A program made the translations under genes and the position numbers. The notes under the pieces were generated by a model that saw only the letters and a list, made by a program, of their open reading frames with translations, was not told the origin of the DNA and did no database searches. Positions 11,430-61,899 of a stretch of 64,000 nucleotides of DNA are shown here, in pieces. Positions within the stretch are counted from its first letter, which is position 1. Each line of letters opens with the position of its first letter. Origin of the DNA: Patescibacteria group bacterium (GTDB lineage: Bacteria; Patescibacteriota; Patescibacteriia; UBA10025; JAHIVO01); contig JBAZKE010000006.1 of the NCBI GenBank assembly GCA_041650915.1, forward strand, positions 8,961 through 72,960, written 5' to 3'.

Positions 11430-12847
11430 TGTTGTACCGCGGCCATCTATATCGTCTGGCTGGGTTAAGCGCCGCACCACGCAGCGCTGCGCCCAAGCTA
11501 GACCCCAAAGATAAGAAACTCACAGACGAGGATAAGAAACCTGTACTCGAAGCATGGCAGCCCCTGACGGACAAGCTCCTGGCACAGTATGAAATTAGAC
11601 CCAACGGGCCCATAGTGGTTACGCAGGAAGCCGATGGGTACGATTTAATCTATAGTATTGACCAGGTGTTCAATTCTCCAGCGTTCATTCGATTCGACGT
11701 CTCGACGGCCAAGAAAGCCATTCAAGAAATCCAGGTCCGGCTCATGTGCTCGCCGCCGCATTCATTCGTCGCGGCGCAACCGGCTCATGTCAAAGACCTC
11801 ATGATGGCATTGAAGACAATTTCAAAGTGCCAGAAGCGATCTGGTACATTCACGCCTCTCGACGAGAACGCCGCACAAAAGGAAGCCGAGGATTACGTCG
11901 AGAACACCATTATGTTCCTGGTGAACGCAGGCGTGGAAATAGATTTCACCAAGCAAGATGATGTCGTCGCGGCACTGGAAAAAGCCGACCTCGATGAAGG
12001 CGAAAAAGCCGCCGCGCAAGCCGCTGTTAAACAATGGGACCGCGACGAATATACAGCTTTTGTGAAGTTACTCCAGCAGCAAGCCGGGGAAATCATCAGT
12101 GTCCGGGAATCCATTTACAAGAAAGTCGCTGAGCTGACTCGGCACGAAGCCTTCGCCGTTAGCCCAGAAACCGTCAGAATCGAAGGCTACCATAACGGCG
12201 CCGCGGTCATTGGATTAGACGTACCTTGGCCCACCGTTCTGGAACTCACGGGACGCGGCGAAAACCTCAAACTCGTGAACTTCGCCACGACTATCTGCAG
12301 TGTGATTGTGAATTCCGGGCCCAATGAAAACTTAGCCAAAGCGCTTCTCACTGCGCAAGTGGATTTGATTCTCGCGGGCGACCGTGCGGCCAACCCGAGT
12401 CTCAGCAAGCCCACGACCGATAAGCTCAATTGGACCGACGAGCAAGTCCAGGAGTTCTTGAAGACGGGCGTTGGCTTGTTGGCACACAGGGTGGATTTGA
12501 AACAGCCACGCAACAACGACCTCACGAGCGTCGTCGTGGACAATAAAGTAATTGAATCGTATGAAAAGGGACCGGAGAATCAAATCGAAAGAAACGCAAA
12601 AGAATATCGTGCTAGCGTTCAGCGGCAGCTAAATAGTAGAAAGCCGGCCTACTGGTTTACATATTATGAAAACGATAATAAAGTAGAAGTTCACGCTACT
12701 GGAAACGGTAAAATCGTCAAAACTTTCCAAAATATTCCGCATCGATTCGACTATGATCTGGATAAACTCCCCATGGAGACAGCGCAACGACCAGATCAAG
12801 AGAAGCCGCAAAAGAAAAGAAGCGTGAGAACTCGCGCCAGACAGTAA
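11429..12847 (+). CDS. Hypothetical protein (472 aa) with N-terminal hairpin tag MLYRGHLYRL
   Basis: ATG overlaps the upstream stop. Tag variant at residues 2-10. Confidence 0.6.
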   Translation: MLYRGHLYRLAGLSAAPRSAAPKLDPKDKKLTDEDKKPVLEAWQPLTDKLLAQYEIRPNGPIVVTQEADGYDLIYSIDQVFNSPAFIRFDVSTAKKAIQEIQVRLMCSPPHSFVAAQPAHVKDLMMALKTISKCQKRSGTFTPLDENAAQKEAEDYVENTIMFLVNAGVEIDFTKQDDVVAALEKADLDEGEKAAAQAAVKQWDRDEYTAFVKLLQQQAGEIISVRESIYKKVAELTRHEAFAVSPETVRIEGYHNGAAVIGLDVPWPTVLELTGRGENLKLVNFATTICSVIVNSGPNENLAKALLTAQVDLILAGDRAANPSLSKPTTDKLNWTDEQVQEFLKTGVGLLAHRVDLKQPRNNDLTSVVVDNKVIESYEKGPENQIERNAKEYRASVQRQLNSRKPAYWFTYYENDNKVEVHATGNGKIVKTFQNIPHRFDYDLDKLPMETAQRPDQEKPQKKRSVRTRARQ

Positions 12848-28241: not shown

Positions 28242-28391
28242 AATTGTGCGGTATTAATTAATGCACGCTGGCAAGATAAAGTATCGAATTCTTTCATTCA
28301 TAATTTAAACTTTTATGCCTTCCTTTTGTGCTCCATGCCAGTAAATTTTGTAAAACAATAGGGAAGAATTTACCTGCTTCCACGGTAGACT

Positions 28392-57979: not shown

Positions 57980-58222
57980 AATTAGTTGAAGCAGTACTTT
58001 GCAGAGCTAGAGGTGGCACATGTGGCGCTAGAACAAAAATTAAAGACGTGGCTTGTGAGAGCAAACTACGAGGATTGAAACGATTGCGCGCATTGCGACG
58101 ACAATAATTTCAGATGGACAGACCAGCGTACTTGGACAGAGACACTGAAATTTGCAGACCAACTGGCCGATTTCGCCGAGAAATACAAACCGACTCTGTA
58201 ACAGTAGCAGAAAGGCAAAACA

Positions 58223-58498
58223 ATGTCAAAATACGATCGACGCCAGAAAACTGAATCTATTTCTCTGTTTGACATTCTTTCCGCGGTTGACGCCAGCGTT
58301 GACACGGCGAAAACGGTCGCGGAGCTTAACTCGGATCTTAATTCAGATAAATATAAATTCACATCAGCAGAGCGTGCGGTACTAGCTACACTGCAGCACA
58401 AATGCGTTCTGATCGCAGAGCAGCACGGTGCATTTTTGGATATGGTTCTGCGGTCTATGGACGACGTAGAAGCCGAGGTCGAGAAAAGCGAGGACTAA
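58223..58498 (+). CDS. Hypothetical small protein (91 aa)
   Basis: RBS AAAGGCAAAAC. Confidence 0.45.
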   Translation: MSKYDRRQKTESISLFDILSAVDASVDTAKTVAELNSDLNSDKYKFTSAERAVLATLQHKCVLIAEQHGAFLDMVLRSMDDVEAEVEKSED

Positions 58499-58893
58499 TG
58501 CGGCGCAAAAAGGAAAAGCAGGAACTCCCGAAACGTACTGCCCGGGGTAATGAACGCCGCGAGTTGGAGGGCTATGTTGGCGTCGACGAATACTTTGATG
58601 ACGACCCGCGTTCTATCGACGAGTACTGCGCCAGGATCCACTTAGCCTGCGAAGACGCACAGGCCTGCTGGCTCGCTCGGCATCCAGGCTGTGAAATCGA
58701 GCCAGGTACATTTTGGCTTAGACTCATGGAACAAGGCGTCTATGACCAAACCCGCCTGTACGGCGTTTTCTATTACTGGGAGGCAGAAGAAGACGCCGAC
58801 GAGTACGCAGAGACCCTGGCAGCCGCCCAGGCGACCAAAGCCGCACAAGAGCGCGAGCTGTACTTGCAGCTAAAAGCAAAGTTTGAACCATGA
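58498..58893 (+). CDS. Hypothetical protein (131 aa)
   Basis: ATG with GAGGA RBS overlapping the upstream stop. The track ORF 58402..58893 is trimmed to this start. Confidence 0.45.
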   Translation: MRRKKEKQELPKRTARGNERRELEGYVGVDEYFDDDPRSIDEYCARIHLACEDAQACWLARHPGCEIEPGTFWLRLMEQGVYDQTRLYGVFYYWEAEEDADEYAETLAAAQATKAAQERELYLQLKAKFEP

Positions 58894-59148
58894 CCAAAGT
58901 TCAATTTGAGTCAACCACCCCTCCTACATGGAGAGACGCGAAAAGGTCTCTGGTTGACTAGGGAACATCGAAAGGTGTAGCAGTTGGTCGAGAGAAATAC
59001 ATACACACCCGTGGACGCTCCTCAAATCTACGGCTCTGTGGATCTGTCGTTAAAAAGCTCAAGGGGTAGAGCTGGTGCGCAGATCTTAAAAACCTCTTCC
59101 AACAATCCCGATGAGGCTCTCACTTCCCTTTCGAGGGAAGGGCAGGAC
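58894..59148 (+). ncRNA. Candidate IscB-associated omega RNA scaffold and left-end structured region
   Basis: About 250-nt non-coding stretch immediately 5' of the IscB PLMP start. Dense nested hairpins (58909-58959 AGTCAACCA...TGGTTGACT with an inner GAGAC/GTCTC stem; GCTC...GAGC about 59080; CTTCCC-TTTCGA-GGGAAG 59120-59137). The reading frame is formally open through it. Confidence 0.3.
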
Positions 59149-60906
59149 TTGAGAGTACCTGCCGTTTATGTTCTTAATCAACGCGGCGAGCCATTAATGC
59201 CCACAACGCCAAGGAAAGCACGAATGCTTCTCCGGGAAGGAAAGGCCAAGGTAAAGACTAGAACTCCGTTTGTAATTCAATTGCTTGTTCCAACCGGAGA
59301 AACCAAACGGCCCATCGTTTTGGGAGTAGACGCTGGATACCTCCACGTTGGCCTGTCGGCCGTAACGGAAAATAAAGAAGTATACGCCGCGGAAATCACG
59401 CTTAGGTCTGATATTGTAGCCTTAATTTCGACTCGTAAAATGTATCGACAAACACGAAGAAGTAGAAAAACCTGGTACAGACAGCCGAGATGGTTGAATC
59501 GAGTAAAAAGCAAACCCAAAGGCTGGCTAGCTCCGTCAATTCAGCACAAGCTCAATAGCCATGTAAAACTGGTCGAGCGCGTTAAACGAATTCTTCCCAT
59601 TACCTCAGTAATAGTGGAAATAGCTGCTTTTGACATTCAGAAAATCAAAAATCCAGATATACAGGGAGTAGAGTACCAAGAAGGTGTGCAAAAAGGTTTT
59701 ACAAACGTGCGAGAATATGTGCTGTACAGAGATGGACATAAATGCCAAGCGTGCAAAGGAAAATCCAAAGACAAAATTTTGAAAGTAGTGTTGAACGCCC
59801 ACCACATAGAGTCTAGAAAAACAGGCGGAAATCGACCTGATAATCTCGTTACACTCTGTGCTGAGTGTCATAAGCTTTACCATAACGGTACCGTAAACAT
59901 TAAAACTAAACCCAGCAAAAGTTTCAAAGCCGAAGCATTCATGACGATGGTGTGGCGACGATTGGTTGAACTATTAGGTGCCGCAATCCGATATGGCTAC
60001 GAAACCAAACAAGCTAGAGCAGACGCTGGACTTAACAAAAGTCATGTTAATGACGCTTTTGTCGTCGCGGGCGGATGCTACCAGAACAGAACAGTTCCAT
60101 TTTTAGTAAAACAAGTTAGGAAACAGAACCGAAAACTTTACAATGGACCACACTCCGGTCGGCGCAGCACCGCTGCTCGATTTGTTCGTGGGTTCCAACG
60201 ATACGATAAAGTCCTGTACAAAGGAGTGGAATGTTTTGTGTTTGGAAGAAGAACCAACGGTTATTTCGACGTCCGAGATCTATACGGTGCTAGAATACAT
60301 GACGGCGCAAAAGCCAAGGACTGTGTTTTGCTGGAAACAGCAAGCACTTTATTAACCTGTACCCTAAGAGGTGGCACTCCCCTGCCTAAAGGCAGAGGTC
60401 TCCATGCCGAAGCCCAAATGAAAATCAGAACTGGTTTTGTCAGCAATTCGAGTAGTTCTAGCTTTGTCGTGCAAATCCGGCAGAGTCCGTGGGAAAAATC
60501 CGAGCCCAAATTGTTGCTTTCGCCGGAGCAACTCGCATGGCTAGAGTCTCAAGGATTTCGGTACTGTGCGCACACGTATCCCTCGCGAGTTGAGGAAACT
60601 GGGATTCTGGAAATGTACCCTGGCGCCGAAACGCCTGAAGCAGCAGAAAATATGTGGCTGTCGGTGATTTGTAACCAAGACGAAGTCATCGACGGTTTGG
60701 TCCGGCAGGGCATTCCATTTTGTGCGTCATGCCACTACGGACACGAGACTGTGGTTTGGCGCGCTGGCGATAAGCGCGTTTATGCATTGCCAAATTTAGG
60801 GCACGAATACGAAACATACCAAGAGGAGAAACTTTTCAAAGCTAAAGTCAAAGTAGCATCACAAACCGTAGCAAGCATCAAGAAAAACGGGTGTAATCTC
60901 GTTTAG
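59149..60906 (+). CDS. iscB: IscB-like RNA-guided nuclease (PLMP, RuvC-I, Arg-rich bridge, RuvC-II, HNH, RuvC-III, TID), fused in-frame to a C-terminal MKIRTGFVSNSSSSSF-family module
   Basis: VYVLNQRGEPLMPTTPRKARMLLREGKAKVKTRTPFVIQLL. LGVDAGYLHVGLS (catalytic D at about 59329). RRSRKTWYRQPRW. VIVEIAAFDIQ. HNH: CQAC...HHIESRK...N...LCAECHKLYH. SHVNDAFVVAGG. TID: FQRYDKVLYKGVECFVFGRRTNGYFDVRDLYG. TTG start at 59149 with GAGGGAAGGG RBS. The track ORF is open from 58984. Confidence 0.8.
   Translation: MRVPAVYVLNQRGEPLMPTTPRKARMLLREGKAKVKTRTPFVIQLLVPTGETKRPIVLGVDAGYLHVGLSAVTENKEVYAAEITLRSDIVALISTRKMYRQTRRSRKTWYRQPRWLNRVKSKPKGWLAPSIQHKLNSHVKLVERVKRILPITSVIVEIAAFDIQKIKNPDIQGVEYQEGVQKGFTNVREYVLYRDGHKCQACKGKSKDKILKVVLNAHHIESRKTGGNRPDNLVTLCAECHKLYHNGTVNIKTKPSKSFKAEAFMTMVWRRLVELLGAAIRYGYETKQARADAGLNKSHVNDAFVVAGGCYQNRTVPFLVKQVRKQNRKLYNGPHSGRRSTAARFVRGFQRYDKVLYKGVECFVFGRRTNGYFDVRDLYGARIHDGAKAKDCVLLETASTLLTCTLRGGTPLPKGRGLHAEAQMKIRTGFVSNSSSSSFVVQIRQSPWEKSEPKLLLSPEQLAWLESQGFRYCAHTYPSRVEETGILEMYPGAETPEAAENMWLSVICNQDEVIDGLVRQGIPFCASCHYGHETVVWRAGDKRVYALPNLGHEYETYQEEKLFKAKVKVASQTVASIKKNGCNLV
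60418..60906 (+). other. C-terminal extension of the IscB ORF, equal to paralog A of the MKIRTGFVSNSSSSSF family (163 aa), with internal ATG
   Basis: Begins MKIRTGFVSNSSSSSF, like the two genes downstream. In the IscB frame with no intervening stop. Could instead be a separate or coupled gene. Confidence 0.5.
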
Positions 60907-60914
60907 GAGGAAAC

Positions 60915-61283
60915 ATGAAGATCAGAACCGGGTTCGTAAGTAATTCCAGCAGCTCCAGCTTTTTGATCTGGGGCATCACAGTAGACACGTCGGAGTTTCA
61001 GAAAGAAATTCCCGTAAGAGATGAAGACGGGGAAGACTGCGAGGAAGAGAGCCCGTACGATGTCGCGGAGCGGCTTGAGTCCGAATACGGTGACATCGTG
61101 CGGTTTGCTTATGAAAACGACATCCTATATCTCGGTCGGTGCCCTTCAACTTGCGGCCTAGACGAGACCATGCGGAAGTTCCAGCAGCGCGTGGAAACCG
61201 AGGTGAAAGCCATGGCTGAGAAAGAAGGCGTAGCTCTGGGAGACGTGGAATTCGGGTGGCTCGAGGAAGCCTGGCACGACTGA
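60915..61283 (+). CDS. Small acidic protein, MKIRTGFVSNSSSSSF family paralog B (122 aa)
   Basis: Strong RBS TAGGAGGAAAC. The N-terminal 20 aa are conserved with A and C. Homologous to C over its full length (CxxxC.DETMxxFxxRVET...FGW...AW). Confidence 0.65.
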   Translation: MKIRTGFVSNSSSSSFLIWGITVDTSEFQKEIPVRDEDGEDCEEESPYDVAERLESEYGDIVRFAYENDILYLGRCPSTCGLDETMRKFQQRVETEVKAMAEKEGVALGDVEFGWLEEAWHD

Positions 61284-61293
61284 GGAGGACAAA

Positions 61294-61611
61294 ATGAAAA
61301 TCAGAACCGGTTTTGTAAGTAACTCGAGTAGTTCAAGCTTTTTGATTTGGGGCACCTTTGTCGAGGTAGACAAATTCGGCGAGGAATTCGATCGCGATGA
61401 AGTCGAAGGCGACATCGTGCACTCCGCCGGGCCCGACGACGACTATTACGTTTACGTCGGACGTGTGCCTAAAGAGTGTCGTGATGACGAAACCATGGGG
61501 CAATTCAAAGCCCGCGTCGAGACCGACGCCAGAGCGTTCCTGGCTGAGCAAAAAGTCGACGCGACAAATCTGAAATTTGGATGGCATTCGGCCGCGTGGT
61601 ACGACGGATAG
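61294..61611 (+). CDS. Small acidic protein, MKIRTGFVSNSSSSSF family paralog C (105 aa)
   Basis: Strong RBS TGAGGAGGACAAA. Paralog of B. Confidence 0.65.
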   Translation: MKIRTGFVSNSSSSSFLIWGTFVEVDKFGEEFDRDEVEGDIVHSAGPDDDYYVYVGRVPKECRDDETMGQFKARVETDARAFLAEQKVDATNLKFGWHSAAWYDG

Positions 61612-61710
61612 AACGACTTTGGTCGTTTTAAAAAATCAGATACCTGCCGGGCGACTGTAGTCAAATCTGCAAAACGTGAAACCATTATCATTTAGTCACT
61701 GGAGGATGAT

Positions 61711-61899
61711 GTGCAATTAATTGCTCTACGTTTTGAGATCAAAACCGACGGCATTGGGAAATGCGCGGAGGAGTGTCCGCAGTTGGCACGGGAGCACCCA
61801 GGATCAACTTATCCAGATCGCTGCAGGGCATTCAAGGCCGACATTAGAGGTCTGGAACGTTTGCTCCAGTGCATGAAACACGAAATTGAGGTGCATTAA
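61711..61899 (+). CDS. Hypothetical small Cys-containing protein (62 aa)
   Basis: GTG start with a GGAGGA RBS. Weak. Confidence 0.35.
   Translation: MQLIALRFEIKTDGIGKCAEECPQLAREHPGSTYPDRCRAFKADIRGLERLLQCMKHEIEVH

Follow-up and report, generated by a model that had tools for sequence, protein, structure and literature searches.

An IscB insertion sequence at the start codon of a phage gene, with a reading frame open across the junction

Several families of ISC transposons insert at N/ATGA without target duplication, as was established from empty sites; ISC elements are 1,341-1,707 bp in size and the ISC1-1_MA consensus has a 5'-GTCA terminus (Kapitonov et al. 2016, PMC4810608). In case of GstIscB, recognition of TTCAT next to the left end of the element (ATGAA when read on the iscB strand) is common to the nuclease and its TnpA; the right end supplies the scaffold of the omega RNA, and the guide comes from transcription of DNA beyond the element (Meers et al. 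2023, bioRxiv 10.1101/2023.03.14.532601). The present analysis concerns an IscB element in a 64,000-nucleotide stretch of contig JBAZKE010000006.1 from a Patescibacteria group bacterium; this whole stretch is called the window. Here the iscB frame continues without a stop codon into a 162-aa phage gene, paralog A. It is very likely that a non-autonomous IscB insertion sequence was inserted at the ATGAA that constitutes the start codon of paralog A, and that the open frame is an accident of this insertion.

The element resembles ISC transposons such as ISC1-1_MA of Microcystis aeruginosa in being short (1.3-1.7 kb) and non-autonomous, with IscB only, a 5'-GTCA, subterminal hairpins and insertion upstream of ATGA. 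It differs from them in residing in a phage replicon and in having an IscB frame that has no stop before or in the target motif and runs into the neighbour gene. With ISGst5/GstIscB of Geobacillus stearothermophilus it shares a target-adjacent motif (TAM) at the left end, the omega RNA layout and co-orientation with the upstream gene; no TnpA partner, however, was identified for it, and its activity, guide and homing are putative. The protein has the RuvC-bridge helix-HNH core and the conserved catalytic residues of OgeuIscB (7xht, 8csz, 7utn), but the identity is about 40% or less, the C-terminal TAM-interaction region was not aligned by sequence search, and OgeuIscB has its own stop codon.

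In the list of open reading frames (ORFs) a single stop-free ORF of 640 aa (58984..60906, plus strand) comprises an IscB-like part and then a module starting with MKIRTGFVSNSSSSSF; the junction peptide reads ...AKDCVLLETASTLLTCTLRGGTPLPKGRGLHAEAQ-MKIRTGFVSNSSSSSF... and contains no stop. This ORF confirms the preliminary description of the locus as regards the frame being open into the module, and the 16-residue N-terminus reported there as common to the module and the next two stand-alone genes was found in all three as MKIRTGFVSNSSSSSF. Some of its details had to be corrected: the KDCVLLE sequence ends at 60336 and not at about 60370, 27 codons instead of about 15 lie between LLE and the internal ATG at 60418, and the module, given as 163 aa, has 162 residues followed by a stop codon. 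The parts of the locus are the following:

58498..58893, plus strand: upstream phage gene, 131 aa on the source contig, stop TGA at 58891-58893; a longer ORF from 58402 is possible
58894..58909, plus strand: 16 nt of phage DNA separating the element from the upstream stop, CCAAAGTTCAATTTGA; candidate omega RNA guide
58910..60417, plus strand: whole IscB insertion sequence, ISC type, IS200/IS605 superfamily, 1,508 bp
58910..59123, plus strand: omega RNA scaffold, Rfam HEARO RF02033 (cmscan 100.1 bits, gathering score 83, E=1.7e-20)
59149..60417, plus strand: IscB coding part, 423 codons, beginning at the probable TTG start and reaching the element's last base, stop codon absent
60379..60398: subterminal hairpin CCCCTGCC-TAAA-GGCAGAGG from the DNA fold, at the element's left end in transposase orientation
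60418..60422, plus strand: target motif (TAM) ATGAA, TTCAT on the other strand, directly 3' of the element
60418..60906, plus strand: paralog A, 162 aa, of an uncharacterised phage family with stand-alone homologues, here in frame with IscB

No transposase gene is present inside 58910-60417, therefore the element is non-autonomous. Its 5' terminus GTCA is formed by the first bases of the omega RNA scaffold; the HEARO match covers the full length of the model, is the sole Rfam match in the 64-kb window and places the omega RNA directly upstream of iscB, overlapping its start region, on the same strand. The protein has the Pfam domains RRXRR (3.1e-62, RRXRR/RuvC) and HNH (3.6e-07), is also matched by PHROG 119 and contains the motifs LGVDAG, VEIAAF, NAHHI and HVNDAF. 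The catalytic RuvC and HNH motifs are kept in the alignment to the solved IscB chain 11hr_A, OgeuIscB (7xht/8csz) scores alike, and several of the 7,999 IscB homologues carry the name "RNA-guided endonuclease IscB". The split RuvC with its arginine-rich bridge helix and inserted HNH, the omega RNA, the subterminal hairpin and the flanking TAM, all of which were found, are among the features of the ISC/IscB group. Since the RRXRR domain begins at 59164, upstream of both ATG 59191 and ATG 59224, the start codon is likely the TTG at 59149.

The closest IscB, P0042 (80% identical), is encoded on a contig binned as a Patescibacteria metagenome-assembled genome, L001. The DNA similarity between this contig and the window (80% identity) is confined to 58909-about 60401, with unrelated flanks, and its left boundary is sharp, the similarity starting at 58909/58910. 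The layout is CCAAAGTTCAATTTGA (58894-58909), the element from GTCA to CCCAA (58910-60417) and ATGAA (60418-60422), the latter being the start codon of paralog A plus the first two bases of its Lys codon; no flank repeat is evident at the two ends. The GC content is 41-47% in the element core (about 59400-60400) versus about 52-61% in the flanking phage genes.

For the right end, 80 further metagenomic IscB loci were compared, and the tails past LLE were read in 78 relatives. A motif anchor located 59 ends automatically; for 18 loci it gave no end, although ATGAA can be seen by eye in several of these. The common order at the right end is GAAAGGAGG..GGCG.TTCCTCCCC, a stem, TAAAG, a stem, GGT.TCC..CGCC, 8-12 AT-rich nt and ATGA(A), and this architecture, including ATGA(A), is conserved in most of the 78 relatives. 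Sibling copies of an element part ways right after ATGA(A) in the sets L058/059/062/065/067/068/076/092, L106/109/132 and L112/113, and likewise in L124/128/131, L105/126 and L072/073. The 5-mer that follows the element is ATGAA in 45 of the 57 distinct related ends. The hairpin at 60379-60398, located at the end far from the omega RNA, falls within the final codons of IscB; all 8 of its pairs, one being a G-T wobble, form on the minus strand. When 42 element ends were aligned, 84.5% of the cells were paired as compared to 60.3% in shuffles, a value not reached by any of 500 shuffles (slid controls gave 23-48%), and 74 compensatory cells were counted, with compensatory changes at all 8 pairs. 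In one sibling of L124/L128/L131, L121, the similarity is lost mid-hairpin (...CCCCTGTCTGA/TCTCTGGACC...), about 58 nt past the IscB LLE codon, which suggests a truncated end or a secondary insertion.

The locus very likely arose in the following way. In a phage genome, the upstream gene and paralog A, the first gene of a tandem family, lay 16 nt apart, and the IscB element entered this gap by transposition. The clade integrates directly 5' (on the iscB strand) of ATGA(A), the TAM of both the Y1 transposase and IscB, and the element abuts the start codon of paralog A to the base because the TAM is here the Met-Lys start of this protein. The lineage has no internal stop, the closest relative ending on the TGA of ATGA; with a tail 2 nt shorter in the window the ATG comes into frame, and translation must go on across paralog A as far as 60906. 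Provided that the contig is correct, no IscB product other than a 585-aa IscB-A chimera (572 aa from ATG 59191) could be made, and we infer that this chimera is an unselected by-product. The 16 nt CCAAAGTTCAATTTGA, located outside the element, would be transcribed as the guide part of its omega RNA. In phages without the element, this guide would lead to cleavage of the empty site, where the guide match is followed by ATGAAA. The suggestion made earlier, that a mobile element is inserted precisely before a member of a polymorphic gene family, was thus essentially right, the precision being explained by the identity of the target motif ATGAA with the start codon.

The position at which the IscB frame ends was compared among the relatives. 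The tails run 10-37 codons beyond the LLE motif in the 78 relatives, therefore LLE is not the typical C-terminus it had been taken for, and the natural end of IscB lies within a few codons of 60418. The frame ends inside the element in 39 of the 59 ends, on the TGA of the ATGA motif in 15 and on a stop overlapping the motif in 2, while in 3 (the window, L062 and L130) it reads past the motif in the ATG frame. In the window 162 codons, a gene, follow the motif; in L062 and L130 the numbers are 5 and 7. The IscB of L001, which was read by eye and is additional to the 15, also stops on the motif's TGA (CAA TTA TGA). A comparison of homologous loci for a stop after the TAM-interaction domain had been proposed before; such a stop does occur inside most elements, but in the closest relative IscB terminates at the motif's own TGA. 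Between the LLE codon and the ATG there are 83 nt in case of L001 and 81 nt in case of the window. Because the tail is 2 nt shorter than that of L001, the window reads ATG and not TGA in frame, and 162 codons follow because the ATG frame is by necessity that of the real gene starting at the motif. As to the earlier idea that the IscB stop was lost by mutation or error, the lineage without an internal stop and the 2-nt difference of the tail agree with it in part, but an error is not needed as an explanation.

Such an error would consist in a tail that is truly 1 or 2 bases longer or shorter, so that IscB stops at TGA 60419-60421, overlapping the ATG of paralog A. The locus is known from a single MEGAHIT contig of 78,120 bp, k141_863847 (ENA ERZ27247363), with no independent copy, and the closest relative uses precisely this TGA frame with a net difference of 2 nt in this stretch. 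However, the stretch differs from L001 by many substitutions and not by an indel alone, it is not a homopolymer, and the likewise frame 0 reading past the motif in L062 and L130 indicates that the configuration occurs naturally. We consider an assembly or sequencing artefact improbable.

The tail peptides use different frames of the same DNA: ...PPLPEGRGILAVTGL resembles the window's ...PLPKGRGLHAEAQ, and ...SSPGLKLGVPALKI resembles ...PPPGLKAEIFASKQL of the closest relative. The stretch is read in all three frames among related elements, and since the tail peptides of the relatives fall in different frames, the tail is constrained as nucleic acid, not as protein. Judged by this pattern, the last ~80 nt of the IscB frame appear to be kept as DNA, that is, for the subterminal hairpin.

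A different reading of the open frame is that of a natural IscB-effector fusion maintained by selection, in which the 162-aa module was recruited as a C-terminal accessory domain of the nuclease. The frame is indeed open and the chimera would be the sole possible IscB product if the sequence is right; moreover, a relative, IsrB, was solved with a C-terminal GFP (green fluorescent protein; 8dmb), so a C-terminal extension need not destroy the ribonucleoprotein. On the other hand, when the 585-aa frame was used for searching, only P0041, which belongs to the window's own contig, extended into the module among the best 120 of 7,999 scored IscB homologues, the other 119 being 392-512 aa long and covering 66-72% of the query. 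No diverged, independent homologue with the same module fused to IscB was present among these best 120 IscB and the best 150 module homologues. The junction coincides exactly with the transposon end and the target motif, and the linker is the DNA-constrained hairpin region, read in varying frames by the relatives. The N-terminal motif, which is the most conserved feature of the module and stands at residue 1 in the family, is buried in the chimera. Because of the single contig and these properties of the junction, linker and motif, selection for the chimera is not suggested, and a selected fusion is very improbable. The new IscB architecture considered as one possibility in the preliminary description is therefore not supported, since the sole fused case among these homologues is the window's own contig and the best module homologues are stand-alone.

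The stand-alone nature of paralog A was apparent from its homologues. With 60418-60903 as query 40 proteins of 155-197 aa and none longer were obtained, 39 of which start with MK[IVT]R.GFVSNSS at residue 1. When 19 of these homologues were aligned to the protein of the window, 18 shared its first Met (MK[IVT]R.GFVSNSS.SSF); the exception has a 17-residue N-terminal extension with Val replacing the Met and probably represents a mis-called start. Residues K2, R4, G6, F7, V8, S9, N10, S11, S12, S14, S15, F16, C85, N86 and Q87 are invariant in this alignment. When 1.84 billion cluster representatives were searched exhaustively with a profile, 253 reached E<1e-30; of these, the best 150 have lengths of 139-219 aa and are matched from residue 1 in nearly all cases. 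The threshold of E<=0.001 is reached by 11,440 cluster representatives with the A-type profile, and the numbers beyond the ~250 full-length relatives are presumably due to the N-terminal motif that these proteins have in common. Paralog A has the features of the A-type family, namely the motif at residue 1, a length within about 140-220 aa and the CNQ[DA]E...HYGHE core. The closest A-type genes (53% identity) are found on three short contigs of the same study, L053-L055, where they are stand-alone, each with its own ribosome-binding site, within an array of at least 4 paralogs sharing the N-terminus.

It is also conceivable that paralog A is mainly made as a separate protein from its own ATG, by internal initiation or by re-initiation after a mini-ORF, the chimera being a minor species. 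The mini-ORF in question is:

60404..60421, plus strand: 5-codon mini-ORF ATG CCG AAG CCC AAA TGA (MPKPK and stop), read directly from the sequence

The ATG at 60418 is the native start of the family. The mini-ORF lies in the IscB frame of the closest relative; AGAGG precedes it by 5 nt, and within an ATGA its TGA shares bases with the start codon of paralog A. It may offer a route to re-initiation at this gene. However, it is not conserved in the relatives and may therefore be due to chance. No Shine-Dalgarno sequence precedes 60418 at 5-10 nt, the AGAGG is sequestered in the conserved hairpin arm, and ribosomes translating IscB would occlude the site. This AGAGG (60394-60398) had been regarded before as a weak ribosome-binding site from which paralog A is started independently; it is in fact the 3' arm of the element's conserved subterminal hairpin, 19 nt upstream of the ATG, which leaves an independent start at the native ATG with a weak basis there. 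Separate synthesis of paralog A is a minority possibility, though a serious one, beside the insertion accident.

The coincidence of the target motif with a start codon is not peculiar to the window. An ORF starts exactly at the motif's ATG in 31 of 58 related elements (30 of 56 after removal of duplicates), where ORFs of at least 60 codons, or open frames of at least 40 codons running off the locus end, were counted. As background, 19.7% of all ATGA sites in the same loci start such an ORF (binomial p=1e-8). All 8 motif-start ORFs tested are real genes, in which a Pfam N-terminal domain is matched from ORF residues 1-11 and profile positions 1-2. In the right flanks of L092, L079, L135, L067, L118, L058, L056 and L098 they encode a metallophosphoesterase, a GalU-like nucleotidyltransferase, DnaJ, an NAD-dependent epimerase, an ATP-grasp enzyme with a ribonucleotide-synthetase pre-ATP-grasp domain, an ATP-dependent DNA ligase, a PglD-like acetyltransferase and an SMC-like ATPase. 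The idea that the element end supplies a Shine-Dalgarno sequence for the displaced gene was dropped, the sequence being present in 9 of 31 ends with a gene versus 7 of 26 without and thus not enriched.

Translationally coupled ATGA gene overlaps are a general form of gene organisation in bacteria and phages. The related elements resemble them in that the IscB stop TGA overlaps the motif's ATG in 15 of 59 elements and in the closest relative, and an IscB stop placed on the motif's TGA would give a classical coupling overlap with the host gene; in the window, however, the overlap is read in the ATG frame and results in fusion, not coupling. Taken further, the clade might land systematically on start codons (ATGAA being Met plus Lys/Asn), the host gene normally being kept translated through the TGA/ATG overlap, so that the window would represent a failure mode in which only the chimera is made, and the chimera might still be an active nuclease. 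Taken as a whole, this extension of the insertion model is rather doubtful. Two points, the overlap of the target motif with start codons and the use of its TGA as a borrowed stop, form a small general corollary that is possibly unreported. The coincidence of TAM and start codon is not stated in Kapitonov et al. 2016 or Meers et al. 2023, and the terms "start codon" and "stop codon" have 0 occurrences each in PMC4810608. For transposon biology, the case illustrates that some IscB elements lack a stop codon and use the TGA which the target motif provides. The frequent coincidence of ATGAA with host start codons also puts the element between a gene and its ribosome-binding site, co-oriented with the gene, and start-codon targeting may in this way contribute to the published orientation bias of IscB elements.

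A number of points weigh against an insertion accident. Only one assembled contig carries the locus, and the 2-nt frame difference rests on the assembly. A Shine-Dalgarno sequence is missing from the spacer as reconstructed for the state before insertion, TGA-CCAAAGTTCAATTTGA-ATG, whereas one precedes paralogs B and C and the A-type genes of L053/L055. No Y1 (TnpA) transposase, which would mobilise the element in trans, is encoded by the genes called over the surrounding ~20 kb, a screen that did not extend to the window's first 49 kb. In the predicted empty site CCAAAGTTCAATTTGA is joined directly to ATGAAAATCAGAAC; this site, AGTTCAATTTGAATGAAAATCAG, gave 0 exact matches in viral contigs, where relatives of the upstream gene were also sought and none was found. 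Since the empty-site allele was thus not found, it is from the relatives and the literature that the precise joint and the lack of target duplication are deduced.

The public gene call P0041 (560 aa) has its start at ATG 59224, a codon internal to RRXRR, and shares its stop with paralog A; as deposited, it is both N-terminally truncated and chimeric. For annotation it follows that the 560-aa "IscB" and the 640-aa ORF are a chimera of two genes and should neither be regarded as a new IscB architecture nor be mined as a natural nuclease-effector fusion.

Paralog A is followed by two further members of its family:

60915..61283, plus strand: paralog B, 122 aa, same 16-aa N-terminus, different C-terminal part, ATGAA start
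61294..61611, plus strand: paralog C, 105 aa, same 16-aa N-terminus, ATGAA start

The N-termini of the three proteins are 100% identical over 16 aa and the DNA is 79-90% identical over the first 48 nt, which indicates that the motif is held by selection on the protein. A strong Shine-Dalgarno sequence precedes paralog B (TAGGAGGAAACATG) and paralog C (GAGGAGGACAAAATG). Since B and C also start with ATGAA (60915-60919 and 61294-61298), every family member offers a TAM-compatible start-codon site.

Paralogs A and C had no match in Pfam or NCBIfam; for paralog B only sub-threshold matches were obtained in these databases, to Fib_alpha, DUF5784 and MazG, the latter to the C-terminal half of MazG (NCBIfam E=3.4e-4, 20 bits, cutoff 148). 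The MazG and Fib_alpha matches are probably noise from an acidic helical region. A PHROG of unknown function, phrog_7397, matches residues 1-26 of paralog A only, and in case of B only the N-terminal motif. The protein search with paralog A against cultured-phage records gave no match, and the literature search for the family motif strings gave no paper. AlphaFold2, run with a 20-sequence alignment, predicted an alpha/beta fold for paralog A (mean predicted local distance difference test score, pLDDT, 87.4; predicted template modelling score, pTM, 0.82), to which no convincing fold match was found. Residues 1-10 (60418-60447, MKIRTGFVSN) are the most conserved yet have a mean pLDDT of 49, while the rest is above 85; the model suggests that the N-terminus is a linear motif read by a partner and not part of the fold. 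The internal proteins of phage T4 share an N-terminal capsid-targeting sequence. The A family may be likened to them, by analogy only, as tandem variable small genes with a short conserved N-terminus, but there is no sequence similarity and no sign of capsid targeting or proteolytic processing.

On IMG/VR phage contigs of up to 548 kb (for instance L017, L011, L005, L021 and L022) up to 10 genes with MK.R.GF.SNSSSSSF are found within about 8 kb. For phage biology this is a very large, uncharacterised tandem gene family, and the invariant Met-Lys start is a potential IscB target in every member.

Turning to the surroundings of the element, the upstream phage gene (58498..58893) had no match in Pfam, PHROG or NCBIfam, and the scan of 58000-61800 for promoters and terminators gave no signal above the shuffled expectation. 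When the 2.9-kb locus was compared with the DNA of cultured-phage records, the only matches were two of ~120 bp, about 72% identical and inside iscB. The genes around the element are phage-like and include DNA ligase, Thy1, RNA ligase, HNH and AAA ATPase. The contig of the closest relative, L001, also looks phage-like and carries a TnpB gene on the minus strand (684-1901). It has a second short translated match to the window, 12634-12748 against 28267-28381, with about 71-85% over 33-38 aa, far from the IscB element.

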